Positions 12,805 through 58,020 of a stretch of DNA of 64,000 bases are shown piece by piece (within the stretch, counting starts at the first letter, position 1; the number at the start of each line of letters is the position of its first letter). The stretch is from Chloroflexota bacterium. GTDB taxonomy: Bacteria > Chloroflexota > Anaerolineae > Promineifilales > Promineifilaceae. Where the stretch lies: positions 63,216 to 127,215 of the forward strand of contig JAWKPA010000012.1 of NCBI GenBank assembly GCA_041390905.1. Direction: 5' to 3'. Position numbers and translations under genes: made by a program. A model generated the notes under the pieces. The model was given only the letters and a program-made list of their open reading frames with translations. It was not told the origin of the DNA and searched no databases.

Positions 12805-12892
12805 AGGGGAATAGAGATTGGGGATTGGAGATTGGAGATTGATGAAGGGTTTCAATCTCCAATCTCCAACCACTAATCTCCCTTTGCTTGAT
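12805..12892. repeat. heptamer-tandem hairpin element (GGAGATT / AATCTCC type)
   Basis: gattggggattggagattggagattgatgaagggtttcaatctccaatctccaaccactaatctcc. Sits at the 3' end of the S2P gene. Confidence 0.75.
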
Positions 12893-14039: not shown

Positions 14040-14112
14040 GGGGATGTGTGGGGAGTAGGGTGTGGGGTGTGGGGTGTAAACACGCTCCACACCCTACACC
14101 CTACTCCCCACG
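14040..14112. repeat. heptamer-tandem hairpin element (GGGTGTG type)
   Basis: ggggagtagggtgtggggtgtggggtg - taaacacgctc - cacaccctacaccctactcccc. Confidence 0.7.
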
Positions 14113-15242: not shown

Positions 15243-15330
15243 TGGCAAACGGTATTCAGTAATCAGTAATCGGTAATCGGTGTGCTACCGTTTACTGATT
15301 ACTGTTTACCGATTACTGTTTACTGCTCCC
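15243..15330. repeat. heptamer-tandem hairpin element (CAGTAAT/CGGTAAT type)
   Basis: cagtaatcagtaatcggtaatcgg - tgtgctaccg - tttactgattactgtttaccgattactgtttactg. The same heptamer family as 62883-62950. Confidence 0.7.
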
Positions 15331-16136: not shown

Positions 16137-16202
16137 GAGATTGGAGGTTGGAGATTGGAGATTGATGAAGGTTGACAATCCCTAATCTCCAATCTCCAAT
16201 CC
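16137..16202. repeat. heptamer-tandem hairpin element (GGAGATT type)
   Basis: gattggaggttggagattggagattgatgaaggttgacaatccctaatctccaatctccaatcc. Confidence 0.75.
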
Positions 16203-16206
16203 CCTT

Positions 16207-16710
16207 TCAAAGCAAGGTAATAAACCCAAACTCCCGTTCGGAATCCGTCAACGCCTTGACGTAATCCTTAGCAAAAAAGTTTTTGATTTGGAGGAACACT
16301 GCCTCATAAAACGGGTCAAGCTGCCCCCTCGCCCCTTCAGGAATGCGGATTTCGCGGCCATTTTTGCCCAGTTTTACAATGAAATGCTCGCCGACTTTCT
16401 TGATAAAGAAGCTGAGGACAAAGGATCGCAGGTGAGAACGGCCTTGATCATGCACCGCCAGCTCGACGCCAAAATGCCAAAACGACTCATCCCCCATCCG
16501 CATGGCTCCAGCAAGGGCGTAGAAGCGGTTTGACGGGTCAAACTCTTCGCCCAGCGGAATGTAGGTGATCTCTTGGTCTTGCGGCCATTCAAGATAATCC
16601 ACCATGCCAAAAACCAGCTCCCGCGCAAAGTCGCGGCATGTCTCTTCGTATTCATTAAATGTGCGTCGAGCTTGGCTATACGCCTGACAAATTTCTTCAA
16701 ATTTACTCAT
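16207..16710 (-). CDS. hypothetical protein (167 aa, lower GC)
   Basis: ORF with no recognisable motif. AT-richer codon usage than its neighbours. Confidence 0.45.
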   Translation of the reverse strand: MSKFEEICQAYSQARRTFNEYEETCRDFARELVFGMVDYLEWPQDQEITYIPLGEEFDPSNRFYALAGAMRMGDESFWHFGVELAVHDQGRSHLRSFVLSFFIKKVGEHFIVKLGKNGREIRIPEGARGQLDPFYEAVFLQIKNFFAKDYVKALTDSEREFGFITLL

Positions 16711-16767: not shown

Positions 16768-17604
16768 CTACTGGTTTCGCCGGAGACCGGGCGCGGCCAA
16801 TGCTTCATCGCTTGACCAGGTAGCAATGGGGAGTGCCGGCTTGTCTTCTTCCGTTTTCAGCCAGCCGCGCATTAGCAGGATGGTAGTCGTGCTGAAAACG
16901 ATGCCACCCAGCACCCAAATAAGCATGGAACCCACATTATAGTCGTTGATGTCCAGCCCGGAAAAGCGGAAGGTTTGGGGGTACAAAAAAACAGTTTGGG
17001 GGTTGATAAGCAGAATTAACCCCACAATTTTAATAGGTGTGGCTCCGATGATGGTATAGGCGGCGCGTGCCAGAGGCGGCAGCGGCGCGTGCCAGTATGG
17101 ATAGGCCTGGGTAATGTGCCACCAGTAGAGCAGGGCAGCACCCAGAAGCGTGGGAATTTCTACCCAACGCAGCAATGGATACAGGAGGGTGGCTTGATGA
17201 ATGGCGGGATCGTACCAAAGCCAAAAGGTGGAGATGAAGAGCAGCCAGGCGATGCCACGATTGGTAAACGGCCGTATTTTTGCCACAAACGGCCGTTTTT
17301 CCTCCAGCCAACCCCGCCACTCGGCCGGCAGCCCGGCCAAAAGCTGCGGCAGCGGATTGGCCGCCATCAGCAGTGCCGGAATCCAGGCGATGAGCAGCAG
17401 GTGCTGCGCCACGCGCAAGGAAAAATATTGGCTGGCAAGCTGGTGCAGTGGGGTAGCCAGGGCAAGCAGCAAAATACCGATTCCGGCCGTAAAAGATGCA
17501 GCCCGCATTTGGCTGCTAGGCACAAGCCGCCGCCCCCGCCCATAACAAACGGTGGTGGTGAGTAAAACGGCCGTTATGCCCAAGCGCCAAATCCAGATAC
17601 CCAT
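16768..17604 (-). CDS. polytopic membrane protein, possibly a caa3-type cytochrome oxidase assembly factor CtaG-like
   Basis: 7 predicted TM helices. Segment LRVAQHLLLIAWIPALLMAANP resembles the CtaG family motif. Contains HIP copies, so it is native. Start MGIWIWRLG (cat 17602-17604). Confidence 0.45.
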   Translation of the reverse strand: MGIWIWRLGITAVLLTTTVCYGRGRRLVPSSQMRAASFTAGIGILLLALATPLHQLASQYFSLRVAQHLLLIAWIPALLMAANPLPQLLAGLPAEWRGWLEEKRPFVAKIRPFTNRGIAWLLFISTFWLWYDPAIHQATLLYPLLRWVEIPTLLGAALLYWWHITQAYPYWHAPLPPLARAAYTIIGATPIKIVGLILLINPQTVFLYPQTFRFSGLDINDYNVGSMLIWVLGGIVFSTTTILLMRGWLKTEEDKPALPIATWSSDEALAAPGLRRNQ

Positions 17605-17682
17605 TAGAACATTGTAGCAACGGTAACGGCCGTTTGACAATCTCGCTTCAAATACGTTCAGGAAAAACAGCAAAGGAGGGCA

Positions 17683-18348
17683 TCAGACCCACCCCAACTC
17701 AGCTAGATAAACCTGGAACATAAGCGAAAAGGCGTGAGCTGGTTGCCCAAAACTGAGGACAAACTCTCGTTCCAGCTTTGTTATTCCTGGCCTGCCTTCA
17801 CGTAATTGGCGTTCCCGAATTGCCCGTAACAAACGATCAAACTCGCGTAGCTGTTTAACACGCAAGTAATTTAGCTGCTCACGATCCAAATGGTATTTCC
17901 GAATCGTTTGGCTCCCTTTGAATGAGCCATACCGAGAGCGAATATATTCATCCTCAAATGATAAATGATCTTCGGGTAAGTCAATATTGTTGCAAGGATC
18001 AAGACAATCAGCTAAGGGAATTCGTGCATTTGGCTGCTTTTTACGGTTACATTCCCGGCATGCCCAGCATAGATTCTCCCATGCAAAGGCCAAGTCTGGG
18101 CGTTCTGCAACCTCCATAACGTGATCAACTTCCCCCTCGCTCTCAGCCAGCTTGCGTTCACAGTAAAAACATTTGCGGAAACTCATGGCGGCCAGCGTTT
18201 CACGAATCTCTACATGACGATATTGGCTGGAAGGGGGACGACTGGCAGGAGATGCTTGGCGTTTCTTTAAATACGCCTCCGTCCATCTCGCCTTGTTTTT
18301 AGTCAAAATAGCTGGTTCTGGTGGTCTCGACAATGTTCTCAAGCTCAA
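17683..18348 (-). CDS. HNH endonuclease (PtuB-like partner of the upstream ATPase)
   Basis: CFYCERKL ... EVDHVMEV ... NLCWACRECNRKK (HNH ββα-metal motif). Overlaps the ATPase stop by 4 nt. Low GC. Confidence 0.75.
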   Translation of the reverse strand: MSLRTLSRPPEPAILTKNKARWTEAYLKKRQASPASRPPSSQYRHVEIRETLAAMSFRKCFYCERKLAESEGEVDHVMEVAERPDLAFAWENLCWACRECNRKKQPNARIPLADCLDPCNNIDLPEDHLSFEDEYIRSRYGSFKGSQTIRKYHLDREQLNYLRVKQLREFDRLLRAIRERQLREGRPGITKLEREFVLSFGQPAHAFSLMFQVYLAELGWV

Positions 18349-19589
18349 AATCCCCCACGGGCCAACGACTGGATCATTTTGTCAACATCAAAATAGGAAA
18401 AGGCTTCAGGATTTAGCTGCTTCAACTGCGCTTCAATTTCATCTTGCAAGCGATGGTTATTTGACGCAATAGCCTCTTCCCGCTGTTCAAGCAGTTGCGT
18501 AATTTCTTCGTTATACGGTTGCGTTTCTTCAAAAAGTGGCGACATCAAAATTTCATCAACAGGTTTGTTGCTATACTCATCCGTTTCATCTACGACAACG
18601 CAGTGATCCCCGCGTGATTGGCAGACAAACAGACGGGCATTGGGTACCGACGAAATGATGAACGGCGAGTGCGTGGTAGCAATAATTTGCAAATTGGGGA
18701 AAAGCTCCAGAATGGTTCTAATAAACCGCTTCTGCCATTTGGGGTGCAGTTGGTTCTCTGCCTCATCAATTAACAGCAGCCCTGGTGTTTGCCCCAATTC
18801 CGACAAAGGCGTTTTCCGCAAAAAATGAACGGAATACATTTTTCCAAGCAAAGCAACCAGATTTTGAATTAGATATGAGTTGCCACTGCTAAGATTTTCT
18901 AAACCAACCTCTTGTCCATTTTGGATAATGATTGGCTCATAGGTAGCACGGGCAACATGACTTAATTTACCTCCATCGATCAGACTGTTAGCAATTATTT
19001 GCTCTAGCATGCTGTACAACTTCATGCCCATATTGCGTTCAGTGGTATCTCGACTATCTCGAAGATAATCAAAATGGCAAATTAGTTGCGTAATCTCATA
19101 TTTAGCTTTTATTCCATTCAAGGAATCTGTTAAATACTGCTCGTGCTTGGGGCTTATGAGCGAATGCACGTTATACGATCCACTTGCTGTTGTAGAAGGC
19201 CAGTAATCAACGAGCCAATCAGGTGCCGAATTTCCCCGCGCTACCTGGTATGGCATTTCATAAATTTGAATTGAGTCAGTATGAATCACTGTACTCGTCT
19301 CTCGCCGCTCAAACACTTTGGAGCTTAATTGCAGAAAGGAATTTTCTGGCTCCAGGCTTAACTCAATGTTTGCCTTATCGACCTGTCCTCTTCTGGGAAG
19401 GTCTCGTTCTAATTTGCAAAAATGTTCACCAAACATGCCACGAATGGCATCCAGGATGATGCTTTTGCCAGTTCCGTTTTCGCCTGTAATTAGCACAACG
19501 GGTGGTTTTTCATCCGTTTCGTTGAAAAAATCGAGTTCGGCTTCGATGAAAGGGCCAATGTTTTGGAGAGACAACTTTTTAACTCTCAT
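18345..19589 (-). CDS. AAA_21/ABC-type ATPase (PtuA-like; SMC/RecF-like N-terminus)
   Basis: Walker A GENGTGKSIILDAI. Signature LSSGNSYLIQNL. Walker B LLLIDEAENQLHP. H-loop ATTHSP. Low GC (about 43-45% by eye). No HIP copies. Confidence 0.8.
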   Translation of the reverse strand: MRVKKLSLQNIGPFIEAELDFFNETDEKPPVVLITGENGTGKSIILDAIRGMFGEHFCKLERDLPRRGQVDKANIELSLEPENSFLQLSSKVFERRETSTVIHTDSIQIYEMPYQVARGNSAPDWLVDYWPSTTASGSYNVHSLISPKHEQYLTDSLNGIKAKYEITQLICHFDYLRDSRDTTERNMGMKLYSMLEQIIANSLIDGGKLSHVARATYEPIIIQNGQEVGLENLSSGNSYLIQNLVALLGKMYSVHFLRKTPLSELGQTPGLLLIDEAENQLHPKWQKRFIRTILELFPNLQIIATTHSPFIISSVPNARLFVCQSRGDHCVVVDETDEYSNKPVDEILMSPLFEETQPYNEEITQLLEQREEAIASNNHRLQDEIEAQLKQLNPEAFSYFDVDKMIQSLARGGF

Positions 19590-19678
19590 AGGGCATTCTC
19601 ACTAATTGTGTTTTGCTGCATTGTACTGGGTTATAAACAAGAATTCTACCTTTCGCACACGCAGCCAAGCTCCAATCT

Positions 19679-21739
19679 CTAATCCCCAATCTTTCTGACC
19701 TGCCCCATAACAGACACATCATAACCGGGGAGAGCAGAAACGGCCGTTCTTACCTCCCCATCATGAAGCAAATCCAGCAGCGGCTTCAACTGTTCGCTTT
19801 CATAGTAGACGAGCGGGATCACCAGCTCATACTGCTCATGCGCCAGCGGCACAAAACCGAGGTTCAGCGCCCGCGCCGCCGCCTGAATCCCCAGCCCGGC
19901 ATCAGCCACGCCAGATGAAACCGCCGCTGCCACCGCCAAATGGGTATATTCCTCCCGCTCATAGCCACGCACCTGCGCCGGGTCAATCCCCCGCCGCCCC
20001 AGCTCATAATCCAGCAGCACCCGCGTGCCTGCCCCCCGCTGCCGGTTGACAAGCTGTATATCCGGGTTGGCCGCATCTTCCCAGCCCGCCAGCCGCTTGG
20101 GGTTGCCCGGCGGCACCATCCACCCTTGCTCCCGCCCCACCAGCGTCACCACCGCCACGGGCTGCCCCGGCAGATAGCGACGAATATAGCTGTCATTGTA
20201 AATCCCCGTTTCCGGGTCGAGCAGGTGCGAGCCAGCCAGATGTGCTTCGCCGCGCCGCAGGGCCACCAGCCCGCTTAGGCTGCCGACGTTGGCCGACATG
20301 AGACGAAAAACGGCCGTTTTTTCCGCCAAAAACTGAGCCAGCACATCCAGCGTCAAATCATGGCTGCCAATCGCCACAATCGTGCGCTCAATTTCCCTGG
20401 GCGTACGGTACAAATGCACCGTCACCGTCGCCCCGGCGTCTTCTCCTTCGCTAAAGCGGGGAATGCGAACAATCCCATCGGCTCGCACCAGCGAGGTGAT
20501 GACCCCCGCGCCGCGACTGATGGGGGTGGTCATGATGTTGTCGCCCACCTTGCCCACCGCCACCCGCACAAAGTCGTCGTCGCCAGTGTGGGAATTGATT
20601 TTGCGCGTTAGTCTGGCCTGAATCGTCGGCGGCTCATACGCCAGCCGCCCCTGCCACCGTGCCAGCAGCGGCTCGACAAAGATTTCGCCGGTGAGGGCGG
20701 CACTAACGGGGTAGCCGGGTACGCCGATGATGGGGGTGGTGTGGGGTGTGGGGTGTGGGGAGATTGGAGATTGGTTATTGGAGATTGGAGATTGGGAGGT
20801 TTCTAATCTCCAATCTCCAATCTCCAATAACCCAATGATAACGGGGTGGCCGGGGCGGACGGCCACGCCGTGTACCAGCAGTTGGCCGAGTGATTGGACA
20901 ACGTGGGCGGTGTAATCTTCGCTGCCGGCCGATGACCCGGCGTTGAGCAGAATGAGGTCGTGGGTTTGGGCGGCTTCACGAACGGCCGTTTGAATCGCCC
21001 CAAACGCATCCGGCACAATCGGCCAGCGGGTGGGCAACCCGCCCCAGTTGGCAACCTGCGCCGCCAGCACAATGCTGTTGTATTCGATGATTTGGCCGGA
21101 AGCGATGCCCGCAGAAACGGCCGTTTCCGCTGAGATTAGCTCCGACCCCGTGGGAATAATCGCCACTCGCGGCTGCCGGTAAACCGTCACCGTGGCATGA
21201 CCCGACCCCGCCAACGCTCCCAAATCCACTGGCCGCAGCTTGTGGTTGGCAGGCAGCACCAGCTCCGTCGCCACCATGTCCTCGCCCATGGGGCGCACGT
21301 GGTGCCACGGCGGCAGTGCCGCCCGAATCTGGATGCCGGGGGTGCCGTCGGGCAGCGTCACCGGCTCGGTGTGTTCAATCATCACCACGGCGTTGGCCCA
21401 ATCGGGCAGCGGGTGGCCGGTGTTGACGGCCTGAATGGGACGCGTTACGCTGTCGGGCGGGGTGTCTTTGTCAATGAGATTGAGCGTCAGGGGAGTGGTT
21501 TCGCTCGCTCCCACTGTGTCCTGCGCCCGCATGGCGTAGCCGTCCATGGCGCTGGCGTGGTAGTGGGGGGCGGATAGTTTGGCAAAAACGGCCGTTGCGG
21601 TTAAACGGCCGTTGGCCTCCGCCACCGGAATCGTCTCGCTGCCCAATGGCCGCCACAAATCGGCCGCCTCTAACGCCGTCCGCAGCGCCGCCTGCGCCTC
21701 GTCCAGCGGAATGTCCTCAAGGTAGATATGTCTTTTCAT
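19679..21739 (-). CDS. moeA: molybdopterin molybdotransferase MoeA fused to a C-terminal PBP-like (periplasmic-binding-fold) domain; contains an in-frame repeat insertion
   Basis: MoeA N-terminal and MPT-binding domains (…HGVAVRPGHPVIIGLL / IIGVPGYPVSAALTGEIFVEPLL). The C-terminal approximately 260 aa resemble the PBP_like domain commonly fused to MoeA. Confidence 0.8.
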   Translation of the reverse strand: MKRHIYLEDIPLDEAQAALRTALEAADLWRPLGSETIPVAEANGRLTATAVFAKLSAPHYHASAMDGYAMRAQDTVGASETTPLTLNLIDKDTPPDSVTRPIQAVNTGHPLPDWANAVVMIEHTEPVTLPDGTPGIQIRAALPPWHHVRPMGEDMVATELVLPANHKLRPVDLGALAGSGHATVTVYRQPRVAIIPTGSELISAETAVSAGIASGQIIEYNSIVLAAQVANWGGLPTRWPIVPDAFGAIQTAVREAAQTHDLILLNAGSSAGSEDYTAHVVQSLGQLLVHGVAVRPGHPVIIGLLEIGDWRLETSQSPISNNQSPISPHPTPHTTPIIGVPGYPVSAALTGEIFVEPLLARWQGRLAYEPPTIQARLTRKINSHTGDDDFVRVAVGKVGDNIMTTPISRGAGVITSLVRADGIVRIPRFSEGEDAGATVTVHLYRTPREIERTIVAIGSHDLTLDVLAQFLAEKTAVFRLMSANVGSLSGLVALRRGEAHLAGSHLLDPETGIYNDSYIRRYLPGQPVAVVTLVGREQGWMVPPGNPKRLAGWEDAANPDIQLVNRQRGAGTRVLLDYELGRRGIDPAQVRGYEREEYTHLAVAAAVSSGVADAGLGIQAAARALNLGFVPLAHEQYELVIPLVYYESEQLKPLLDLLHDGEVRTAVSALPGYDVSVMGQVRKIGD
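20727..20836. repeat. composite heptamer hairpin element (GGGGTGT x3 plus GGAGATT arrays) inserted in frame inside moeA
   Basis: ggtggtgtggggtgtggggtgtggggagattggagattggttattggagattggagattgggaggtttctaatctccaatctccaatctccaataacc. Translated within MoeA as LEIGDWRLETSQSPISNNQSPISPHPTPHTTP. Confidence 0.8.
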
Positions 21740-21814: not shown

Positions 21815-22018
21815 GAACCGCAGAGTTCGCAGAGGGCGCAAAGACAGAGAAGTTGGATACGGATAAAAACAATGAGCCAGTAAGTGAGATTGTAATAAGT
21901 TACAAGAGATTGGAGATTAGAGATTAGAAACGAGCCAATCTCCAATCTCTAATCTCCATTTTGTATATCTAACCTTCCTTCCTAAACCTCCGCGCTCTTT
22001 GCGCCCTCTGCGGTAAAT
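21815..22018. repeat. nested element: outer IR (CCGCAGAGGGCGCAAAGA ... TCTTTGCGCCCTCTGCGG) enclosing a GGAGATT-type heptamer hairpin (21893-21958)
   Basis: Lies between the divergent moeA and DUF4956 gene starts. The outer arms match the element at 345-470. Confidence 0.6.
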
Positions 22019-26872: not shown

Positions 26873-27238
26873 TTAGACCAGTTCATAAGGTTGAATGAGA
26901 ACGTTTGCCGGAATACCCAGTTCTGCTTGTAGATTGCGAATCATGCGTAAAGATAACGGCCGTTTGCGTCCCAGCACTTCTGACACCCGTGCCCTGCTGC
27001 CTAACAACGGTTCAATATCCTGCCGCGTTAGCCCACGACTCTCCATATAATACTCAATGGCCGCAACCGGATCAGGTGGATAAATCGGATACTCCCGTTG
27101 CTCATAGGCTTCCACCAATGTCGTCAAAACATCTAACATATCGGCTTCTTCACTGCCAATGTTTGCATCAAACAAGCGCTCAATTTGTGCTAATGCAGCC
27201 TGATAGTCACGCTCACTCCGAATTGGTTTAACTTGCAT
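26873..27238 (-). CDS. higA: HigA-like antitoxin (XRE-family HTH)
   Basis: 121 aa. The C-terminal HTH (LTRQDIEPLLGSRARVSEVL) is typical of HigA. Lies 9 nt downstream of the toxin gene. Confidence 0.7.
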   Translation of the reverse strand: MQVKPIRSERDYQAALAQIERLFDANIGSEEADMLDVLTTLVEAYEQREYPIYPPDPVAAIEYYMESRGLTRQDIEPLLGSRARVSEVLGRKRPLSLRMIRNLQAELGIPANVLIQPYELV

Positions 27239-27247
27239 TAAATACCC

Positions 27248-27541
27248 TCAAATGGTTGTTGCATCAACCTCATCATATTCCGCATGTATACCGACAAAGC
27301 GAATAAACACAATACCCAAATCATAGCGAATCATCACAATGAGCCGATAATGATTGCCCTTGATGTTAAACACGACGCGATTGTTTGGTAAGATACTGGC
27401 GTTGCGATACACGGCTTTAATTTCTGTTGGAGACCGCCAATTGGCATTCCTGGTGTCATCATACCAAGCTCGCAGCGGTTGTTCTGCATCAGAATGCTTC
27501 TCCCAAAAATCGCGTAATGTTTTACGGGCTATAATGCTCAT
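27248..27541 (-). CDS. higB: HigB-family toxin (RelE/ParE superfamily mRNA interferase)
   Basis: 97 aa. KGNHYRLIVMIRYDLGIVFIRFVGIHAEYD is typical of HigB 'killer' proteins. A TATAAT lies immediately upstream. Lower GC. Confidence 0.7.
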   Translation of the reverse strand: MSIIARKTLRDFWEKHSDAEQPLRAWYDDTRNANWRSPTEIKAVYRNASILPNNRVVFNIKGNHYRLIVMIRYDLGIVFIRFVGIHAEYDEVDATTI

Positions 27542-37059: not shown

Positions 37060-37122
37060 ATTGGGGATTGGAGATTGGAGATTGATGAGGGTTCACAATC
37101 TCCAATCTCCAATCTCCAATCC
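37060..37122. repeat. heptamer-tandem hairpin element (GGAGATT type)
   Basis: gggattggagattggagattgatgagggttcacaatctccaatctccaatctccaatccc. Confidence 0.75.
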
Positions 37123-43634: not shown

Positions 43635-43705
43635 AGTGATTAGAGATTGGGGATTAGAGATTGTGAACCTTCATCAATCTCCAATCTCCAATAACCAATA
43701 ACCAA
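43635..43705. repeat. heptamer-tandem hairpin element (GGAGATT type)
   Basis: gattagagattggggattagagattgtgaaccttcatcaatctccaatctccaataaccaataacc. Confidence 0.75.
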
Positions 43706-43713
43706 TTATCCCC

Positions 43714-49545: not shown

Positions 49546-52500
49546 TCAGTTGCCTGTGGCATAAAGCCACATCGTATCGATTAAATCATTTTGATTAGGG
49601 CTATTACCACCAAACATGACAATACCATTTAAGGGGGCGTAGTAAACGGCTTCGCTGGCCCATGTTGCTGGTGGATTGGTTGTCGGGGTAGCTGCAACCC
49701 ATTGCTGCCCATCAAATTCCCATGTGTCAGCATAGGCACCCGTGTGATACAAAACGTCATAGCCACCAAACAAAACAAGTCGTTGTTGAACAGGATTATA
49801 GGCCATTTGATAATTATAACGTCTGGGAATAGTTGGTGTCCCAATTTCAGACCAGCCATCCCCATTATAAGCCCAGGTTTGGTTGTAGAGTTGTGTTCCA
49901 TTGCGAACTGATAAGATGACTTTGCTCCAATCTGAGACGTAAGACATCCATGAACCGGTATTAGCTGGAGGTGAATTGGTCGTGCTAATTTGTGTCCAAT
50001 TCGTTCCATCATATTCCCAAGTATCATTGAGGATATCGTTGCCTATTTGTGTTCCGCGCCAGCCACCAAACATGATGACTTTGCCCCGAACAGGGTCATA
50101 GGTCATTGCATGATTACTGCGTCCCAAGGGTGTATTGCTTGTATTAATCTGGCTCCAACTGTTGCCATCGAATTCCCAAGTATCGTTGAGATGGATTCCA
50201 GCCCAGACATGCCCACCAAACAACACAATGCGCTGCCGTGAACTGTCATAGACCATTCGGGCATTCTCTCTAGGGCTGGGCCCACTGATATTGAGTTCTT
50301 GCCAACTAGTGCCATTAAAGACCCATGTGTCGTCACAAGCAAATCCTGCACACGTGCCACCAAACAGCACCAACTCATTGCTGCTGGTGTCAACCGCTAA
50401 TGCCACACCCGCTCTAGCTGATGGTTTTGTTGACGACTGATTGACCAAAGACCAATTATAGGTTGGGTTAGGTGGTTCTCCGGGTGAAATGGGAAAGTTG
50501 AAAATCCCAACTTCGTTGGAAACGACTTCTCCAGTTGCGTTAAGTGACTTCACTTTATAGAAACCGCCAGCATTTACAATAAATTCAGATGTTGGTGCGT
50601 TTAGCGTTGCGAGCTTGGTACTGCCGCTGTCACCCGGCGTAAAGTAGGGATTAGGGCTATGCCAAACTTCATAGGTTGTATTTTGTGACTGATGTGTCCA
50701 AGTGAGCGTTACTTGGCTACCATTTTGCTCAGTACCAACATTGATTTGGGTAGGTCCTGTAGAAACATAGGTGGTCGTGGCAAAGGTTATGTGTCCTTGA
50801 TAATCACCCACACCATCAAAGGCATTGGTTCCCCCAAGACCATCAGCCACTGTACCGGGCAACCCAAAATTCCAGCCACCGTTGCTTACAGTAATGATGC
50901 CGTTCCAATGCAAAACATGCTCACCCGTTGGGCCATAGACATCATAAGATACGTCGATATCGGCATCTGCACCCGTCGTGTTCACGATAGTCAGCACCCA
51001 TTGAATGGGATCACCGGGATCGAAGGTGTTTTTGGCACCCCAATTGCCATCACCTGTCCAGGCATCTGTTATTTCTACAGTGGGGCAAACGGCCGTTTCG
51101 CCTTGAACCCAGCCTGCTTGCCCTGATTCGCTGCCGTTATTGACGGCACTCACAGTGTAGTAGTGCGTTTCCCCACAAGTCAGTCCTGTATCTGTGTATG
51201 AGGTGACATTGGCCGCCACCGAATCAAGATAAAGGAAGTCCCACGCTGTGCCATTCCAGCCCCAGCGATAAATTTTGAAACTGGTCTCGTTGCTGGAATT
51301 ATCTTGCCAAGCCAAAGAAATACTGTTGTCAGTCGTGCCACTTACAGATAAATTCGAGGGCGATGTAGGTGCTGGCGGGGTGCAAGTGGTATTGTGGAAT
51401 ATCTCAACTGAGGAAACAGTGTTGTTTAAGCTTCCAAGGCTGGAAACATCGCCAGTTAAGCAGCCACTTGCTTGCCCACCTCGATCATTGTGTTCATAGA
51501 GGCGAATAGACCAGCCATTCGGAATGCGAACAGATTCGCCGCGATCGTTAAAGTAGAGATCATCTGGCCCCCCAATTTGATTGAGGTTATGGAGACCTTC
51601 ATTGTAGCCAATCCCCCAATGGTGGCTACCGTAGTTTTGATTGTCATACATGACAACGCTATAGAGTTGCGAGGTGGGGCAGTTGCTCTGGTTGAAGGTT
51701 TGTACGCCGGTGACTTGGCCTCTTAAGTCCCAAGGGTCGCCGCTGGGCAGGGGAATGCGGTTGCCGCTATAACATTCGGCCGTTCCGCGCAGACCGCCTT
51801 CTCTGAACAGAAAGACAGATTTTCCAGCAGGTACAATGGTTGACCGCATCCTGTCATTAAGACCAAAACTTGATAAATCACTATAAACCCCAATGGGAAA
51901 TATCCAACAATCAGAACTAGCATCATCTGTGCCACACAATATTACCTCATCAGACTGGTGAGAGGTGTCTATGTGGAATTGTCTTGTTACCCATGCGCTG
52001 GCCTCACCAGCTTCATTCCACGTCCGCATATGCCAATAAAATGTCCTATCTGCGGAAAAGGTATAGTCATGGCTTGTGTAGCCGTTGCCAAGACCCGTAT
52101 CTACAATCCAAGGTTGCGTATCTGGATTTGAACTTGTATTCAGTCGGAATGTATACCCCGTTTGATTCGGAGAGTTAGGGCTTTGCCAAACAAAATGAAC
52201 AGATCTGTTATCTAGTATTTCGCCATTGTTTGGGGAAACAAGTAGCGGGGGCGTGAGAGTCCCTCCACCTCCACAAAGGCTGCTGGTATTGCTCTGAGAA
52301 ATAAATCGGTTTTGTCCTGGGCAATGAGGACTGTTGTTTGATTGAAACCAAGTTTTGTGTGACTCAAACGCAAAAACCGTCTTTGCTGTATTGGCTTCAT
52401 TGGTATGAGGAAAGCCATTTTCTACACCTGCATCTACCCAACCACAGTTTGTGCTAATATTTTTTGAGGTTGTAGAAATAGCAGATCTGACAGCCGAGCC

Positions 52501-54519
52501 ATTGTATCCTTCTGCAAAACCTTGTGCATTGACTTCTGGGTAGATCCTCCAACTATCGATCTCTATGCCTGTCCAAGGAACGGCAGAGCCTTTCCCTGCC
52601 CAAGTGCTGTAATTTGAACCTCCCGTCCGAAGCTCTAAATGAATGTGAGCAGGATCCCCACTTGGTAGACCAGAATTACCTATTTCTCCAAGATATGCTC
52701 CTGATTGAATCGGCTGTCCAACATGAAGATTCGGATTGATAGAGGAAAGGTGCCAATACATTGACACGACATTATTTGAATGCTCAACTGCTACCCAACG
52801 TCCTCCTTGCCAAATAGTTGTGTCTTGTTTAATTCCAACAATTGTACCACCTGCAATAGAGATAACGGCCGTATTGAATGGGTCATTTTGGTCAACGCCA
52901 CCACCAAAATCAATGCCCGAAGTCTCGTTCACTGGTGTGTCATTGCAACCAGGAGGATGACCAACGCCATGTGGCCCACCCGAATATGTACGCCTGTCAA
53001 CAAAGGGCATCAAAAAAGTAACCGTGTTGAGGTTTTTGAATACGAGCTCCATATACGGAGCAGTCGTTTTTGGATCGCCAAAGTACGCAGAGTAAATATC
53101 GTAAAATTGTTTTTCAACATCATAGGGAGATTTGTGGTAAGCTGCAGCGTTAATTGCTACTCCCGTGGCAATCCCAAAGCTTGAATTATTTACAGCTCTA
53201 TTTAAACGAGAATATGTATACCAAGTCTCAATTGCTTGGTCATCTATATGTTTGGATCTGAATGTGGCAGTGGCTTTCATCATTTCTATTGCCACATCAA
53301 GCAATTCCTTTTCGTATCCTTGCAATACCCCACAATTTAAGTTTGGGTCGGAAATAATCCCATGAGTAATTTCTGACATTACGAGCAGAACTCTTGGATT
53401 TATGCCAGTTTCTTCTGATATTTTGTTGACTAGACTCGAATAATTTACGATGTCATTATCTATCTCAAAATAACAATTGCTAACAGAGGAATTAACGTTA
53501 TCAAGCCATTGCCGAATATCAAATGCGTCAATACTTGGAGCATATACAAATCGAGATTCAGCTATCCAGTTTGCAGATTTTTCTTGAGGGTACTCTTTTG
53601 GTTTGCTGATAAGCTCAACGCTAGACAGCATTTGATAGCCAATATACAAATCAGATACGTCGTTAAGCGTCTGCACAAAGCGAAAATGATAGAGATATCC
53701 CTCGATATAAAAGATTTTTTCCGTATTGTAATTTCCATCATGATCCAAGAGCGCGATCTGCCTACCTTCTCCTTCACTTAATTGTAATATCTGCTTATCT
53801 AGAATCTCGTTGTTTGCCGCTCGATAGTCTTCATAATAATCCCACTCATCAGGGGTCATCGGCGCAACAAAGGCTGAGAAAAAGCCACCTTGGATTGGAT
53901 GCCCTAATTTATCAACTTCCAGATTAGGGCTGCCGATACGAAATCCGAAATCTTTGTAAGGGATATTTTGTAGATTCCAATTTGAGGGGTACGAAACGGT
54001 GAATGCCCAATAGGGATCGGTATAAGTTTCCCAGCCAAGGGTGCTTTGTAACAATGAGTTGTCAAAATTTGGGGCAGGTAATTCTAATCTGGATCGTAAT
54101 GTTTCCTTTTCGGCAAGGGGAATTAGGGTGTCTGGCAAAACGGTTAACCATTGAGGATAGAGCATGTTATCTGGTAAGACGACTTGCCAAATGCCATTTG
54201 GAAGCGCATGAGCTAGGGCAACATATCTGTGAGCGGGGGAGCGTTCAATGATGCCGTAAGCCCACTGGCCTTCTACGTTGATTTCTATGAGTGTGGCTGT
54301 TGGGTCGTTGGAGAGGGCTGTGGCAAAGGCTTCTTGTATTTGTGTTTCGTCTTGGTTCGTGGTTTGTTGGGTTGAAGGAGGGGATGGGGTTGGTAACGGC
54401 CGTTTTTCAATCATCCCTCCTGAGTCAGACTGTAGCATATCGGGCGATGCCCCAATCTGCAAACTTGAAAGCAGCATAAATGTAACTACCAAAATAATGA
54501 ACGAAAATTTGCGTCTCAT
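49546..54519 (-). CDS. giant secreted multidomain protein (1657 aa): signal peptide, M23 (LytM-type) peptidase domain, fibronectin-III domains, and C-terminal Kelch/β-propeller repeats
   Basis: Signal MRRKFSFIILVVTFMLLSSLQIGA. M23 motif GEIGNSGLPSGDPAHIHLELR. FN3-like PPAPTSPSNLSVSGTTDNSISLAWQD. Kelch-like repeats (LVLFGG…DTWVFNG, IVLFGGH…DTWEFDG). Lower GC. GAGGAAA upstream of the start. Confidence 0.75.
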   Translation of the reverse strand: MRRKFSFIILVVTFMLLSSLQIGASPDMLQSDSGGMIEKRPLPTPSPPSTQQTTNQDETQIQEAFATALSNDPTATLIEINVEGQWAYGIIERSPAHRYVALAHALPNGIWQVVLPDNMLYPQWLTVLPDTLIPLAEKETLRSRLELPAPNFDNSLLQSTLGWETYTDPYWAFTVSYPSNWNLQNIPYKDFGFRIGSPNLEVDKLGHPIQGGFFSAFVAPMTPDEWDYYEDYRAANNEILDKQILQLSEGEGRQIALLDHDGNYNTEKIFYIEGYLYHFRFVQTLNDVSDLYIGYQMLSSVELISKPKEYPQEKSANWIAESRFVYAPSIDAFDIRQWLDNVNSSVSNCYFEIDNDIVNYSSLVNKISEETGINPRVLLVMSEITHGIISDPNLNCGVLQGYEKELLDVAIEMMKATATFRSKHIDDQAIETWYTYSRLNRAVNNSSFGIATGVAINAAAYHKSPYDVEKQFYDIYSAYFGDPKTTAPYMELVFKNLNTVTFLMPFVDRRTYSGGPHGVGHPPGCNDTPVNETSGIDFGGGVDQNDPFNTAVISIAGGTIVGIKQDTTIWQGGRWVAVEHSNNVVSMYWHLSSINPNLHVGQPIQSGAYLGEIGNSGLPSGDPAHIHLELRTGGSNYSTWAGKGSAVPWTGIEIDSWRIYPEVNAQGFAEGYNGSAVRSAISTTSKNISTNCGWVDAGVENGFPHTNEANTAKTVFAFESHKTWFQSNNSPHCPGQNRFISQSNTSSLCGGGGTLTPPLLVSPNNGEILDNRSVHFVWQSPNSPNQTGYTFRLNTSSNPDTQPWIVDTGLGNGYTSHDYTFSADRTFYWHMRTWNEAGEASAWVTRQFHIDTSHQSDEVILCGTDDASSDCWIFPIGVYSDLSSFGLNDRMRSTIVPAGKSVFLFREGGLRGTAECYSGNRIPLPSGDPWDLRGQVTGVQTFNQSNCPTSQLYSVVMYDNQNYGSHHWGIGYNEGLHNLNQIGGPDDLYFNDRGESVRIPNGWSIRLYEHNDRGGQASGCLTGDVSSLGSLNNTVSSVEIFHNTTCTPPAPTSPSNLSVSGTTDNSISLAWQDNSSNETSFKIYRWGWNGTAWDFLYLDSVAANVTSYTDTGLTCGETHYYTVSAVNNGSESGQAGWVQGETAVCPTVEITDAWTGDGNWGAKNTFDPGDPIQWVLTIVNTTGADADIDVSYDVYGPTGEHVLHWNGIITVSNGGWNFGLPGTVADGLGGTNAFDGVGDYQGHITFATTTYVSTGPTQINVGTEQNGSQVTLTWTHQSQNTTYEVWHSPNPYFTPGDSGSTKLATLNAPTSEFIVNAGGFYKVKSLNATGEVVSNEVGIFNFPISPGEPPNPTYNWSLVNQSSTKPSARAGVALAVDTSSNELVLFGGTCAGFACDDTWVFNGTSWQELNISGPSPRENARMVYDSSRQRIVLFGGHVWAGIHLNDTWEFDGNSWSQINTSNTPLGRSNHAMTYDPVRGKVIMFGGWRGTQIGNDILNDTWEYDGTNWTQISTTNSPPANTGSWMSYVSDWSKVILSVRNGTQLYNQTWAYNGDGWSEIGTPTIPRRYNYQMAYNPVQQRLVLFGGYDVLYHTGAYADTWEFDGQQWVAATPTTNPPATWASEAVYYAPLNGIVMFGGNSPNQNDLIDTMWLYATGN

Positions 54520-54635
54520 TGCGATTTCCTCGTCTCCAATGCTGGCTCAGTCTCTTGTGCCTTGCGCCCTGCATGACAAAAGTGCCTTGCACCACAGATG
54601 GAACAAGGCACCTGATTATAGCTTTTTTTCCTGGC

Positions 54636-57074
54636 TTATCGCAAGACAAGGGGAAGATGAGCTTGATAGGACTCACCGAGTAGTGCAAAAGTATCGTTAC
54701 CAGAAAACGAAGTGAGTTGTGCAGTAACTTGTTGAGACCCCGAATTGACCGTGCCTGGAATTGGTTCCCAAATTGAGCTACTAGACTGGTACTTGTACAA
54801 TTGTAGCGTATCTTCGCGTACACTAGATGGTAAATAGTCTAGTGTAATTGAGATGCTTTTCCCCACAGGAAGCGGAGCCAATTCTCCTGTACTTACATCG
54901 TAACTGCTTACGGTAAAGAAGAAACCTCCACTTCTCAAAGACCCTGTATTCATAACCGGTTCTTCTTCGTAACGAACACGTACAGTATTGGCGTAAGTAT
55001 TTGCTGGAATGTTAATCGTCACATTGGCATCGGGCGATGTTAAACTCCCTCCTGAAGTTGGTATGTCGTCTGAAATCCTGTCAAAGCGCTTTAGTTGTAC
55101 GAAACCGCCACTACCAGTAGCAACTGAGACATCATCACCCTCTACCACAACTTGTTGACCAAACGAGGGAAGCCCAGTTGAAGCTACGGGATAGCTGCTG
55201 CCGCTTAAGGGATTATTGACATCATAAAGTGCGATGCTTCTGCACCCGTCGGTAACATAGGCATAACCGTTGGATAAAGCAATGGAACTGCTGGCACCAC
55301 AAGTATTTAGTGTCCTGACAAGGGTAGGCGTACTTGGTGTAAGCACGTCAACAATATGAAATGGTTGGGTATCGTTTGCTATGAGATAGGCATATCTTCC
55401 GCTTACAACGACTCTATCTGTCCATACTCCATATTCGCCCACAAAGTTCAGTGTGGCTGGATTACTAATATCATATATTTTCAGCCCGGCCGTCGTTGCT
55501 GCGTACAGGTAGCCCCCTTCAACGTCTACGCCTTGCACATTAACACCAGAGGCTACAGAAACTGATGAGGTTTCATAAGGGGAGCTGGGGTTCTCAATAT
55601 TAATGGCACTGATACCACTCCAGGAACCAATATAAGCATAGCTATCGGAGAGAGCAATAGAGCTTGCTCCTTGAATTGACAGAGTTGTGGTTCCTAAAGA
55701 TGCAGGGCTATACGGGTTTTTGGCATTCAATATCTCAAGATATCCAGAACCGCCTAAACCGTCGCTTTTGGTAAGGTAGACAAATTCACCTCTTGCAGCC
55801 ATTTCTCCGAGGCGCAGTGGCGTACTCCAAATTAATGTTGCTGCTCCATAGGAGGGCTGGTGTAGTCCAAGATACCATAATTCTTGCTGTGAGGTGGCAA
55901 ACACGTTGCCGTTAGCCCTGGCAGCACTACCTGTATAAATCATTTCTCCCGCTATTGTCTTTATAAGAGACGGCAAGCCAGGGTTTGAGGCATCTACAAT
56001 GACCAAACCATCTTCCTCTGTACCCAAGTAGACTGTAGAGCCAGATAAATAAAGACCGTCTCCCAGTGATGGCAATGATAGAACACTAACCTGGGTTGGC
56101 GCACCTGGGTTGCTAATATCAACAATATGCAATTCAGCCAACTCTCGTAGATACAAAAATTTGCCAGATATGATCATGTTCTCTCGTGGAGAGAAGTTTG
56201 GTGGTTGGTAGACTCCAATCTGAACTGGAGCGTTAGGATTCGACACATCAATTACCAATATTGCATTGGTTAAAGCCAAGTAAACATAGTTTCCTTGCTT
56301 AACTAATCCCTGTGCATAATTCTGCGTGGCTATACTCCCTACTACACTTGGTGAATTTGGGGAAGAAATATCAACAACGATTAAACCGTCTGAACCAGAT
56401 GTAAGATACGCATAACTATCGGATACGGTAACAGACCGTAGCCAACTCGTTGTTGCCGTGATAACGGCCACATCTGTGGGAATCGTTGGGTTTGTTATAT
56501 CTACAACGCGAAACCACTTACCTTGGGGAACAAAAGCGTAATTGCCAGAGGTCTCAATATCGTGAATAGCGGTCGTAGGGCCGAGATAACGAATGGGTAT
56601 ATTTCCCACTTTGGCTGGCTGATTGACATTACTTGCATCAATAATGTCTACTCCGGAAAAACCATGAGGTACATAGAGGAGATTGTTTGCTGCATGTATG
56701 TTGTAAAATTGCGCTTTGTTTGAATCTGACCAGTGAGCAAGCGTTGAAGGAGTAGCTGGGTTATTGCTATTTGCAATGACTAAATCCGCTCCCACATTAT
56801 AATATAAGCGATTCCCATCTCCTGTCACAGCCCATGTTGCGCCACCAATAGAGTGGGTTGCTACCAGCTTCGAGTCTGTAAATATTGTTTTAGCGGCCAC
56901 TTGTTGGAACGTATAGGCATCTCGAATTTCCATGGAACCAAGAGATGTTTGTAGCGGTAAATTTCGTTGCAGTGGCTCACCAGACACTGTAGCCCCAAAT
57001 GTGATTGCTGTTGCCAGGCTAAGCATGAATAAAACTGCTAACATTAAAGTGAGTGTAAGTTTTATAAATCGCAT
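54636..57074 (-). CDS. secreted LVIVD-repeat β-propeller protein
   Basis: Signal peptide MRFIKLTLTLMLAVLFMLSLATA. Repeated …YAYL…GLIVVDISSPNSP / ILVIDVSNPNAP / HIVDISNPGAP / LVIVDASNPGLP motifs. GAGG upstream of the ATG (cat 57072-57074). Confidence 0.75.
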   Translation of the reverse strand: MRFIKLTLTLMLAVLFMLSLATAITFGATVSGEPLQRNLPLQTSLGSMEIRDAYTFQQVAAKTIFTDSKLVATHSIGGATWAVTGDGNRLYYNVGADLVIANSNNPATPSTLAHWSDSNKAQFYNIHAANNLLYVPHGFSGVDIIDASNVNQPAKVGNIPIRYLGPTTAIHDIETSGNYAFVPQGKWFRVVDITNPTIPTDVAVITATTSWLRSVTVSDSYAYLTSGSDGLIVVDISSPNSPSVVGSIATQNYAQGLVKQGNYVYLALTNAILVIDVSNPNAPVQIGVYQPPNFSPRENMIISGKFLYLRELAELHIVDISNPGAPTQVSVLSLPSLGDGLYLSGSTVYLGTEEDGLVIVDASNPGLPSLIKTIAGEMIYTGSAARANGNVFATSQQELWYLGLHQPSYGAATLIWSTPLRLGEMAARGEFVYLTKSDGLGGSGYLEILNAKNPYSPASLGTTTLSIQGASSIALSDSYAYIGSWSGISAINIENPSSPYETSSVSVASGVNVQGVDVEGGYLYAATTAGLKIYDISNPATLNFVGEYGVWTDRVVVSGRYAYLIANDTQPFHIVDVLTPSTPTLVRTLNTCGASSSIALSNGYAYVTDGCRSIALYDVNNPLSGSSYPVASTGLPSFGQQVVVEGDDVSVATGSGGFVQLKRFDRISDDIPTSGGSLTSPDANVTINIPANTYANTVRVRYEEEPVMNTGSLRSGGFFFTVSSYDVSTGELAPLPVGKSISITLDYLPSSVREDTLQLYKYQSSSSIWEPIPGTVNSGSQQVTAQLTSFSGNDTFALLGESYQAHLPLVLR

Positions 57075-57181
57075 ATCGTTGCCTCTTTCCTCTATTCTTG
57101 AAGGTATGACGAATCGAAACGAACTGAAAAACACTAAAGAAATAACCTTTCTATTTGATTATAGTGGTTAGAGTTTGGTGT

Positions 57182-57264: not shown

Positions 57265-58020
57265 ATGTGTGCTATCAAGATTTTGTTGGTTGATGACGAT
57301 GAATTTACGCGCATGGGGCTATGCCTCTATCTGCAAGAACAGGGGTATGCAGTGGTTGAGGCTGGGGATGCGGCGGCGGCACGGGTATTGGTGGCAGCCC
57401 AGAAGCCAAGCGTTGCTATTATCGACATCGAAATTCCGGAGACGGAAATAAGTGCCAACGCTCGCCAAAACAGCGTGGGAGTAGAATTGGCCGTTTGGCT
57501 CAAGCAGCATTATCCAACGCTGGGTATCGTTTTGTTCTCAGCCTATGAAGATCGCGGGCAAGAACTGTTCAAACTGGTGCGTCAAGGCGTGCGTGGCATT
57601 GGTTATCAGCTAAAGGGAAGCCGTCCCGGCAAGCTATTACAGGCAGTACAGGGGGTTATGAAAGGTCATGTGGTGATTGATGCAGAGGTGACACAGTTGC
57701 GCCGTACAGCTATTGAACTACTGGATCGCCTCTCGCCAGCGGAAAGATTTTGGGTCGAACAGGCATTGTCTAGTTTACCACAGTTGTCCCCGCGTGAAAT
57801 GGAGGTGGCGCAGCAGGTGGCACTGGGACATATGGTCAAAGGAATTGCGGAACTGTTGTGCTTGTCGCCAAAAACGGCCGAAAATTATGTTGGCCGTATC
57901 TACCATAAACTTGGTCTGAGCCAAATGCACCTTGAACCTCCTCACTTACGTCAAGTAACCATTCTGGCGCAAGCCTTTCTTGTCTATGATCTGAGTTTGG
58001 CAAGGGAGGCTGAAGTCTAA
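57265..58020 (+). CDS. two-component response regulator, NarL/FixJ (LuxR-HTH) family
   Basis: Receiver domain ILLVDDDEF… and C-terminal LSPREMEVAQQVALGHMVKGIAELLCLSPKTAENYVGRIYHKLG. GGGAG upstream of the ATG. The stop overlaps the kinase start (TAATG). Confidence 0.85.
   Translation: MCAIKILLVDDDEFTRMGLCLYLQEQGYAVVEAGDAAAARVLVAAQKPSVAIIDIEIPETEISANARQNSVGVELAVWLKQHYPTLGIVLFSAYEDRGQELFKLVRQGVRGIGYQLKGSRPGKLLQAVQGVMKGHVVIDAEVTQLRRTAIELLDRLSPAERFWVEQALSSLPQLSPREMEVAQQVALGHMVKGIAELLCLSPKTAENYVGRIYHKLGLSQMHLEPPHLRQVTILAQAFLVYDLSLAREAEV

Follow-up and report, generated by a model that had tools for sequence, protein, structure and literature searches.

The stretch of DNA considered here (the window) comprises 64,000 nucleotides of a contig from a Chloroflexota bacterium. 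On its minus strand, between the genes moeA and ctaG, lie two adjacent genes, ptuA and ptuB, whose products are an ABC-type ATPase and an HNH nuclease. An earlier note, made from the letters alone, had pointed to the pair as co-directional and AT-rich and as a candidate for the Septu anti-phage defense system, and both minus-strand reading frames were indeed recovered (Table 1). The findings described below indicate that the locus is very probably a stand-alone (type I) Septu, a ptuA-ptuB operon that was acquired horizontally as a minimal cassette of ~2 kb between moeA and ctaG.

All of the ATPase motifs that had been picked out by eye are present in PtuA: Walker A (G36-ENGTGKS-43), the ABC signature (L233-SSGNSY-239), Walker B (L271-LLIDEAE-278), and the H-loop (A304-TTHSP-309). 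In an alignment of 32 PtuA homologues, K42, S234-x-G236-N237, D275/E276, and H307 are invariant. Among the defense-system hidden Markov models (HMMs) of PADLOC, the protein matches the PtuA model PDLC00309 at E 7.6e-151 (residues 1-409 on model positions 1-410 of 413), and in Pfam it scores above the cut-off for AAA_21 (74.6 bits), AAA_15 (70.7 bits), and AAA_23. It had been suggested that 414 amino acids (aa) is short for PtuA and might mark a divergent variant. However, the best PADLOC model has only 413 positions and is matched end to end, and there are hundreds of homologues of 405-425 aa. When the AlphaFold (AF2) model of PtuA (predicted local distance difference test [pLDDT], 88.7) is compared with the PDB by Foldseek, the top 50 matches are all PtuA chains, with E values down to 6e-18 and template modeling (TM) scores of 0.6-0.69; these chains come from the Escherichia coli Septu structures 8EEA/8EE4/8SUX or from the retron complexes Ec78/Ec83/Eco7. 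A profile search of PDB sequences also gives PtuA matches, at E ~1e-21 to 1e-22. In the AF2 model, aa 361-410 form a three-helix C-terminal extension. A PtuA-like ATPase is, in addition, found as the C-terminal part of some much longer fusion proteins, including P0204 (932 aa), P0221 (607 aa), P0242 (1114 aa), and others.

The HNH motif attributed to the downstream protein is likewise present in PtuB, as C60-x2-C63, D75-H76-V77, and C97-x2-C100. The earlier note had singled out the catalytic histidine and the metal ligands as the residues on which the nuclease assignment could fail, and an alignment of 20 PtuB homologues finds them intact: C60, C63, H76, N92, C97, C100, and N101 are invariant. 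Of these, C60/C63/C97/C100 are the zinc ligands, and H76, N92, and N101 are catalytic. PtuB matches the PADLOC PtuB model PDLC00337 at E 2.6e-38 (residues 4-185 on model positions 2-182 of 216) and the Pfam HNH family at 2e-7 (31.5 bits; cut-off, 21.4). Its AF2 model (pLDDT 81.6), in which aa 157-217 form a three-helix C-terminal domain, retrieves full-length PtuB chains as the top 11 Foldseek matches in the PDB (8eea_G first; TM 0.54-0.61), and below these only isolated Cas9 HNH domains. A phmmer search of PDB sequences with PtuB gave no match, and a profile search of the same sequences gave a PtuB match at 4e-6.

The ptuA stop lies at 18345, ptuB starts at 18342 or 18348, and the same pairing is seen in all related loci, as expected of an operon; whichever TTG is used, the two genes are tightly coupled. 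The 4-nt overlap reported by the earlier note requires the TTG at 18348, a start that is not supported by comparison with relatives. In that comparison, a GTGA overlap is the arrangement in relatives. In the closest orthologue, that of the related locus L014, a TAA stop abolishes the TTG homologous to 18348, and translation must begin at the equivalent of the TTG at 18342. Public gene calls give PtuB as 219 aa. It is likely that ptuB of the window encodes 219 aa and follows ptuA after a 2-nt spacer, with a Shine-Dalgarno-like run, GGGGGA, 8 nt upstream. A scan of the locus found only a weak stem-loop at the ptuB stop. In public annotations, ptuB is miscalled (166-207 aa) or missed altogether at L002, L019, L020, L001, and L021, because its GTG/TTG start sits at or beside the ptuA stop; the NCBI entry MEZ4510342.1/MCA9996620.1, for example, gives a PtuB of 207 aa. 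A true loss of ptuB from L001/L021 was considered and rejected as a gene-calling artefact, since the DNA that they share with the window aligns to it without gaps at 99.9% identity. NCBI metagenome-assembled genomes (MAGs) labeled as Anaerolineales or Chloroflexota bacterium carry the exact proteins, which are named there only "AAA family ATPase" and "HNH endonuclease."

Table 1. Features of the ptuAB locus, in window coordinates
Feature	Coordinates	Strand	Size and start	Remarks
ptuA	18345..19589	(-)	414 aa, ATG start	ABC-type (AAA_15/AAA_21) ATPase
ptuB	17683..18342 (17683..18348 if TTG 18348)	(-)	219 aa from TTG 18342; 221 aa if TTG 18348	HNH (beta-beta-alpha-Me) nuclease
Cassette leader, 5' of ptuA ATG	19590..19626	(-)	37 nt	Opens with TACAAT (-10-like) hexamer, 19625-19620; conserved in L014
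Insert 3' tail, past ptuB stop	17642..17682	(-)	41 nt	Weak stem-loop over stop codon
Whole insert	17642..19692		2,051 bp by BLAST boundaries; ~1,985 bp if remnant model is right	
Junction segment	19627..19692	(-)		Missing from empty-site genomes by BLAST
Neighbor moeA	19679-21739			MoeA-PBP fusion
Neighbor ctaG	16768-17604			Caa3_CtaG

Composition sets the pair apart from its surroundings, as had been claimed. The GC content is 0.43 in ptuA (0.43 at third codon positions [GC3]) and 0.47 in ptuB (GC3 0.44), compared with a window mean of 0.55. The proposed comparison with the flanks was run, and the GC3 of 0.43-0.44 in ptuAB contrasts with 0.65-0.76 in the neighbors (GC/GC3: moeA, 0.63/0.73; spoU, 0.62/0.76; mdh, 0.59/0.71; ctaG, 0.57/0.65). 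Of five other hosts of this cassette clade, three or four likewise show a lower GC content in the cassette than in its flanks, and one, L019, shows no difference.

Horizontal acquisition, which the earlier note had thought probable, can be seen directly from the empty site in related MAGs. In these genomes (Anaerolineales KC423 and Ardenticatenaceae H6668; L024-L029), ptuAB is absent, a spacer of 41 nt lies between moeA and ctaG, and the gene order DUF4956, moeA, ctaG, orf167, spoU, mdh is common to them and to the flanks in the window. BLAST homology to L024 spans 21850-19693 and restarts at 17641, and the two blocks are just 12 nt apart in L024; because homology to the empty-site genomes breaks at these positions, they delimit the insert (Table 1). 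The restart sits just upstream of a promoter-like site of ctaG (17640-17611). At the other end, a heptamer-repeat arm, GATTGGG GATTAGA GATTGGA (19691-19670), now supplies the stop codon of moeA and the four codons before it. Within the junction segment, AGAATTCTTGTTTATAACCCA (19647-19627) is, from its alignment, probably a remnant of the original moeA-distal sequence, with an equal or better score in 12 of 2000 shuffles. If so, the cassette proper may begin at 19626, 37 nt before the ptuA ATG.

Neither terminal inverted repeats nor a target-site duplication was found at the insert ends beyond chance and a ubiquitous palindrome, AACGGCCGTT, which flanks the empty site too, and there is no integrase or transposase at the cassette. 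Collections of phages and plasmids contain no close relative (the maximum is ~31% identity, full-length or partial, apart from one 58-residue fragment at 50%), and consequently no vector can be named. A further gene, orf167 (16207-16710, minus strand; 167 aa, GC 0.50), lies between ctaG and spoU and is at least 90% identical across all related MAGs, Septu or not. It was considered as a part of the module and rejected, because Septu-less relatives have it at the corresponding position and neither Pfam nor PADLOC gives a match to it. Two of these Septu-less relatives, L024 (13742-16504) and L027 (13722-16504), have a PIN_10/DUF433 toxin-antitoxin pair and a large EAD7-TPR (NACHT/STAND-like) gene after an ABC-F gene.

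The locus L014 carries the cassette at the same junction, although its other flank differs, and it provides a measure of how the two genes have evolved. Between the window and L014, identity is 91-93% for MoeA, 85% for PtuB, and 75-76% for PtuA. The ratio of nonsynonymous to synonymous substitution rates (dN/dS) is 0.10 for ptuA and 0.08 for ptuB, with about 0.1 for moeA also; thus, both cassette genes are under purifying selection. This constraint is unevenly spread over PtuA. Between the two loci, identity reaches 97-100% in the ATPase core (aa 261-360) but is only 30-38% over aa 61-120, which form the least conserved patch of the family, with a column homogeneity of 0.16-0.32 versus 0.5-0.8 elsewhere. 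The AF2 model shows the patch as a beta-rich excursion that follows the Walker A helix.

The synonymous divergence (dS) between the window and L014 is 1.8 for ptuA, 1.0 for ptuB, and 0.41 for moeA, so that dS in the cassette is 2.5-4.5 times that in its flank. The identities among moeA genes are star-like (window-L014, 0.891; window-L024, 0.902; L014-L024, 0.883); consequently, the presence of the cassette, which is patchy at this site among relatives, does not track the phylogeny of the flank. These observations are suggestive, but only suggestive, of a cassette that has been laterally exchanged, or lost, among relatives, since weaker codon-usage constraint in AT-rich genes could inflate dS.

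How firmly the pair can be called Septu depends on how other families fare against the same data. In PADLOC, both proteins score best, and over their full length, on the Septu models, and the next-best matches are mostly to other PtuA/PtuB models, which agrees with the earlier view that the architecture is that of Septu rather than of OLD, Gabija, or PARIS. Weak matches to AriA (2.6e-22), OLD (PDB 6p74, 1.6e-5), and mREase_IV (4.8e-11) could be taken to indicate another ABC-ATPase/nuclease defense of this kind (OLD, Gabija, or PARIS/AriAB) or a type IV (McrA-like) restriction HNH with a helper ATPase. However, these matches are of partial length and lie 10 to more than 100 orders of magnitude below those to PtuA/PtuB, Pfam finds no TOPRIM or DUF4435 domain, and the fold search puts PtuA/PtuB first, leaving such a system very improbable. 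The N-terminal P-loop resembles that of SbcC, Rad50, RecN, RecF, and SMC, as would be the case for a housekeeping DNA-repair pair made up of a RecF/SbcC/Rad50-like ATPase and a nuclease. The possibility that the ATPase would score best as such a protein, which had been raised as an objection in advance, was checked; the similarity is confined to the first ~50-100 residues and scores 18-33 bits, 10-50 times below the cut-offs of 172-1087. In addition, the pair is missing at the same site in close relatives and has a foreign composition. The probability of a repair pair is therefore practically negligible. A more specific proposal is that the genes are the effector half of a type I-A retron under the control of a reverse transcriptase (RT) and multicopy single-stranded DNA (msDNA); PADLOC labels such retron-associated PtuAB type II Septu (PMC12640716). 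The equivalogs of retron Ec78 PtuA/PtuB are the only named matches in NCBIfam, and retron PtuA chains are the top PDB sequence matches. Yet the NCBIfam scores fall far under the cut-offs (95.2 vs 500 bits and 44.3 vs 150 bits), and the PADLOC retron I-A ATPase/HNH models trail at 3.6e-31 / 1.3e-14. The neighbors are MoeA and CtaG with no RT, no RT is found at any related locus, and the 64-kb window has no Rfam match and no tRNA gene. Retron PtuA has ~120 extra residues (PMC12819146), in the form of an N-terminal extension and a helical flap, which the window PtuA lacks. A retron effector thus deserves very little credence, and it is the lack of an adjacent RT, of a retron RNA, and of the extra residues that assigns the locus to type I Septu. 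Across five unrelated genomic contexts (including Desulfobacterales and several metagenomic lineages), the sole constant is a ~415-aa ATPase gene followed by a ~218-aa HNH gene, usually with a 4-nt overlap, and neither a third conserved gene nor an RT is present.

The remaining alternative concerns the role of the cassette rather than its family. The pair might persist chiefly as an addiction cassette of a selfish, toxin-antitoxin-like kind, or be silent cargo, and give this host hardly any protection from phages or none. Over-expressed PtuAB alone is toxic in E. coli (PMC12640716), and the cassette is minimal, lies outside defense islands, has no detected promoter, and moves between relatives. 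On the other hand, both genes are under strong purifying selection with their catalytic residues kept, a hypervariable surface patch is typical of arms-race genes, and each Septu tested so far gives phage protection (PMC13096335, PMC12819146). An addiction or cargo function is thus unlikely, though it retains more weight than any of the other families just considered. Taken together, the gene pair, the HMM and fold membership of its products, the intact catalytic residues, the purifying selection, and the insertion relative to an empty site are what the sequence shows. The locus is another member of this system, from a compact PtuA clade that already has a dedicated PADLOC model and that comprises ~53 clusters at 50% identity (E<=1e-30) within a superfamily of 3,297 clusters (E<=1e-10). 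We know of no experimentally tested member of this clade.

A likely mechanism can be outlined by analogy with homologues, which provide the grounds for the proposed complex, its control by ATP, the trigger, the substrate, and the phenotype. In this model, PtuA would oligomerize and bind ATP, as in characterized Septu, and its three-helix C-terminal extension would clamp the three-helix C-terminal domain of PtuB. The predicted C-terminal helices of the two proteins fit the published arrangement in Septu and Ec78, a nine-helix PtuA2-PtuB bundle that has the C-terminal domain of PtuB held between the C-terminal extensions of two PtuA (PMC12819146). The complex would keep the HNH nuclease inactive in uninfected cells until a phage cue (a protein cue), a fall in ATP, or both licensed PtuB; the hypervariable patch of PtuA is a candidate for the surface that meets such a trigger. 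PtuB would then cut nucleic acid, arresting the growth of the infected cell and thereby blocking phage production, consistent with the abortive-infection-like phenotype reported in the Septu literature (PMC13096335, PMC12819146, PMC12640716).

Which nucleic acid PtuB would cut is a closer question. The complex of E. coli Septu has a 6:2 PtuA:PtuB stoichiometry and nicks plasmids in a reaction inhibited by ATP (Li et al. 2024, as related in PMC12819146 and PMC12640716), and Retron-Eco4 PtuAB cuts single-stranded DNA (PMC12819146, PMC12640716). In EcB88 and Retron-Eco7, however, it is tRNA-Tyr that is cleaved in vivo, at its variable loop (PMC13096335, PMC12819146, PMC12640716). It has thus to be considered that PtuB cleaves tRNA, in particular tRNA-Tyr, and that defense comes about by translation shut-down. 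The cleavage, seen with both a stand-alone Septu and Retron-Eco7, depends on infection, and supplying tRNA-Tyr lets phage escape (PMC13096335). Moreover, H76/N92 of the window PtuB align with H75/N91 of EcB88; these two residues, and K43 and D316 of EcB88 PtuA, are each required for immunity (PMC13096335). Against this, supercoiled DNA is nicked in vitro by the PtuAB of both E. coli Septu and Ec78, single-stranded DNA is cut by that of Retron-Eco4, the loss of tRNA is possibly indirect (PMC12819146), and the clade is just 14-20% identical to those proteins, with no tRNA gene in the window for comparison. A tRNA target is therefore given somewhat less than an even chance, and, at so low an identity, there is no more than a slight lean toward DNA nicking or cleavage over the tRNA-Tyr variable loop.

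It should be noted that several points weigh against the Septu assignment or limit what can be carried over from known systems. Septu was reportedly described originally by Doron et al. in 2018, from Bacillus, as an operon of a PtuA ATPase and a PtuB HNH protein; the Bacillus plasmid-borne copies, from a different phylum, are about 22-25% identical to the window proteins. In structural alignments, all of the characterized PtuA/PtuB proteins are only 14-20% identical to those of the window; because this identity is so low, the oligomeric state, response to ATP, trigger, and substrate may differ. The window PtuA is about 50 aa shorter than that of E. coli, with about 45 residues fewer between Walker A and the signature, and its signature has Asn (LSSGN) where E. 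coli Septu has Leu and retron PtuA has Gln (LSDGQR; PMC12819146). A sigma-70 promoter scan found no consensus site upstream of ptuA, so that expression of ptuAB is a presumption. Finally, the locus is not part of a defense island: among the ten flanking ORFs within ~13 kb, there is no other PADLOC match except a HigA-like antitoxin. Some of these differences might be assembled into a bolder proposal, in which the compact ~415-aa PtuA clade is a mechanistically distinct Septu with aa 61-120 as its phage-sensing patch, an oligomer or substrate unlike the E. coli 6:2 complex, and cassette alleles that related Chloroflexota exchange through homologous recombination, with the moeA-ctaG site as a fixed hotspot. 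The raised dS of the cassette and the mismatch between its presence and the moeA tree are hints in favor of such an exchange. We consider this proposal doubtful.

The palindrome encountered at the insert ends is a feature of the whole region. There are 75 copies of the 10-nt AACGGCCGTT in the 64 kb (for example, at 17566, 17625, and 19739) compared with 0.1 expected from shuffles; they sit within genes and between them, and the homologous positions are occupied in related MAGs (L024, L027, and L014). A full-text literature search for AACGGCCGTT turned up no paper in which it is presented as a genomic repeat. The earlier note had taken the ptuAB stretch to be the longest without a copy. The stretch is indeed copy-free from 17635 to 19738 (2,104 nt), and not even the CGGCCG core occurs inside ptuA or ptuB, but it ranks only 7th, behind gaps of 3,686, 3,297, 2,746, 2,722, 2,228, and 2,209 nt. 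The use of this gap as evidence of foreign origin was rejected as statistically empty, because ~6.4 gaps of 2,104 nt or more are expected by chance from 75 copies in 64 kb.

Long hairpins of tandem heptamers are a second class of repeat (12814-12881, 14046-14110, 15252-15325, 16140-16204, 20763-20832, 21906-21961, 37060-37121, and 43675-43706). Their units are arranged as (GAGATTG)n-loop-(CAATCTC)n, with GGGGTGT or GTAATCG in others. Most are intergenic, one lies in frame within moeA, where it encodes ...LEIGDWRLE...SNLQSPISNN..., and at the Septu junction (19691-19670) the C-terminus of MoeA is encoded by a half-arm of such a hairpin. The hairpins resemble the short tandemly repeated repetitive (STRR) sequences of cyanobacteria.

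Other parts of the window are also low in GC. A two-gene module on the minus strand at 26873-27541 (GC3 0.43) encodes a 97-aa HigB-like toxin (27248-27541) and a 121-aa helix-turn-helix antitoxin (26873-27238), the latter matching the N-terminal third of PADLOC PD-Lambda-2_B at E 1.4e-43. A toxin-antitoxin pair of the HigBA type, and not PD-Lambda-2, is the probable identity of this module, with the HigB call made by eye only. The largest low-GC block of the window (49546-57134, minus strand; GC 0.39-0.49, GC3 0.36-0.41) encodes two giant proteins, one of 1,657 aa (M23 peptidase, fn3, Kelch beta-propeller) and one of 832 aa (LVIVD repeats), and contains the two longest gaps free of AACGGCCGTT; a LuxR-type response regulator and a GAF histidine kinase (57265-60431) adjoin it.

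The significance of the locus is modest. It leaves the knowledge of Septu unchanged, and PADLOC or DefenseFinder would annotate it automatically. It does, however, add one more Septu from a poorly studied, uncultured Chloroflexota lineage whose defense systems have hardly been examined. In addition, it is an unusually clean, minimal (~2 kb) defense cassette, free of an integrase, terminal repeats, and neighboring defense genes, in a 41-nt spacer between housekeeping genes. The clean empty-site evidence for such a cassette and the hypervariable patch of PtuA are mildly new, and nothing else is; the patch can be tested as a candidate for the surface with which stand-alone Septu recognizes its trigger, a surface that is still poorly defined.

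Among the known systems, the type II Septu PtuAB of Retron-Eco7 (Ec78) and Retron-Eco4 (Ec83) have homologous ATPase and HNH effectors, which are the best PDB matches in both sequence and fold. Unlike the pair in the window, however, these need an RT and a noncoding RNA/msDNA antitoxin, and their PtuA, at 550 aa, carries the N-terminal extension and helical flap. The PtuAB of E. coli ATCC 25922 Septu (8EE4, 8EE7, 8EEA, and 8SUX) has the same folds as the window proteins (for PtuA, Foldseek E 7e-18; for PtuB, a top match to 8eea_G), and a C-terminal helical PtuA-PtuB interface is common to both. Its identity to them is 14-19%, and the 6:2 stoichiometry and inhibition by ATP are features of the E. 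coli complex. EcB88 is, like the pair in the window, a two-gene, stand-alone system, but one with a known target, the tRNA-Tyr variable loop, and a known phage range; its PtuA K43/D316 and PtuB H75/N91 are the apparent counterparts of K42/D275 and H76/N92 in the window. Finally, the members of the PADLOC PDLC00309/PDLC00337 clade have the same lengths and the same two-gene architecture, are matched end to end, and show no structural difference from the ptuAB pair of the window.

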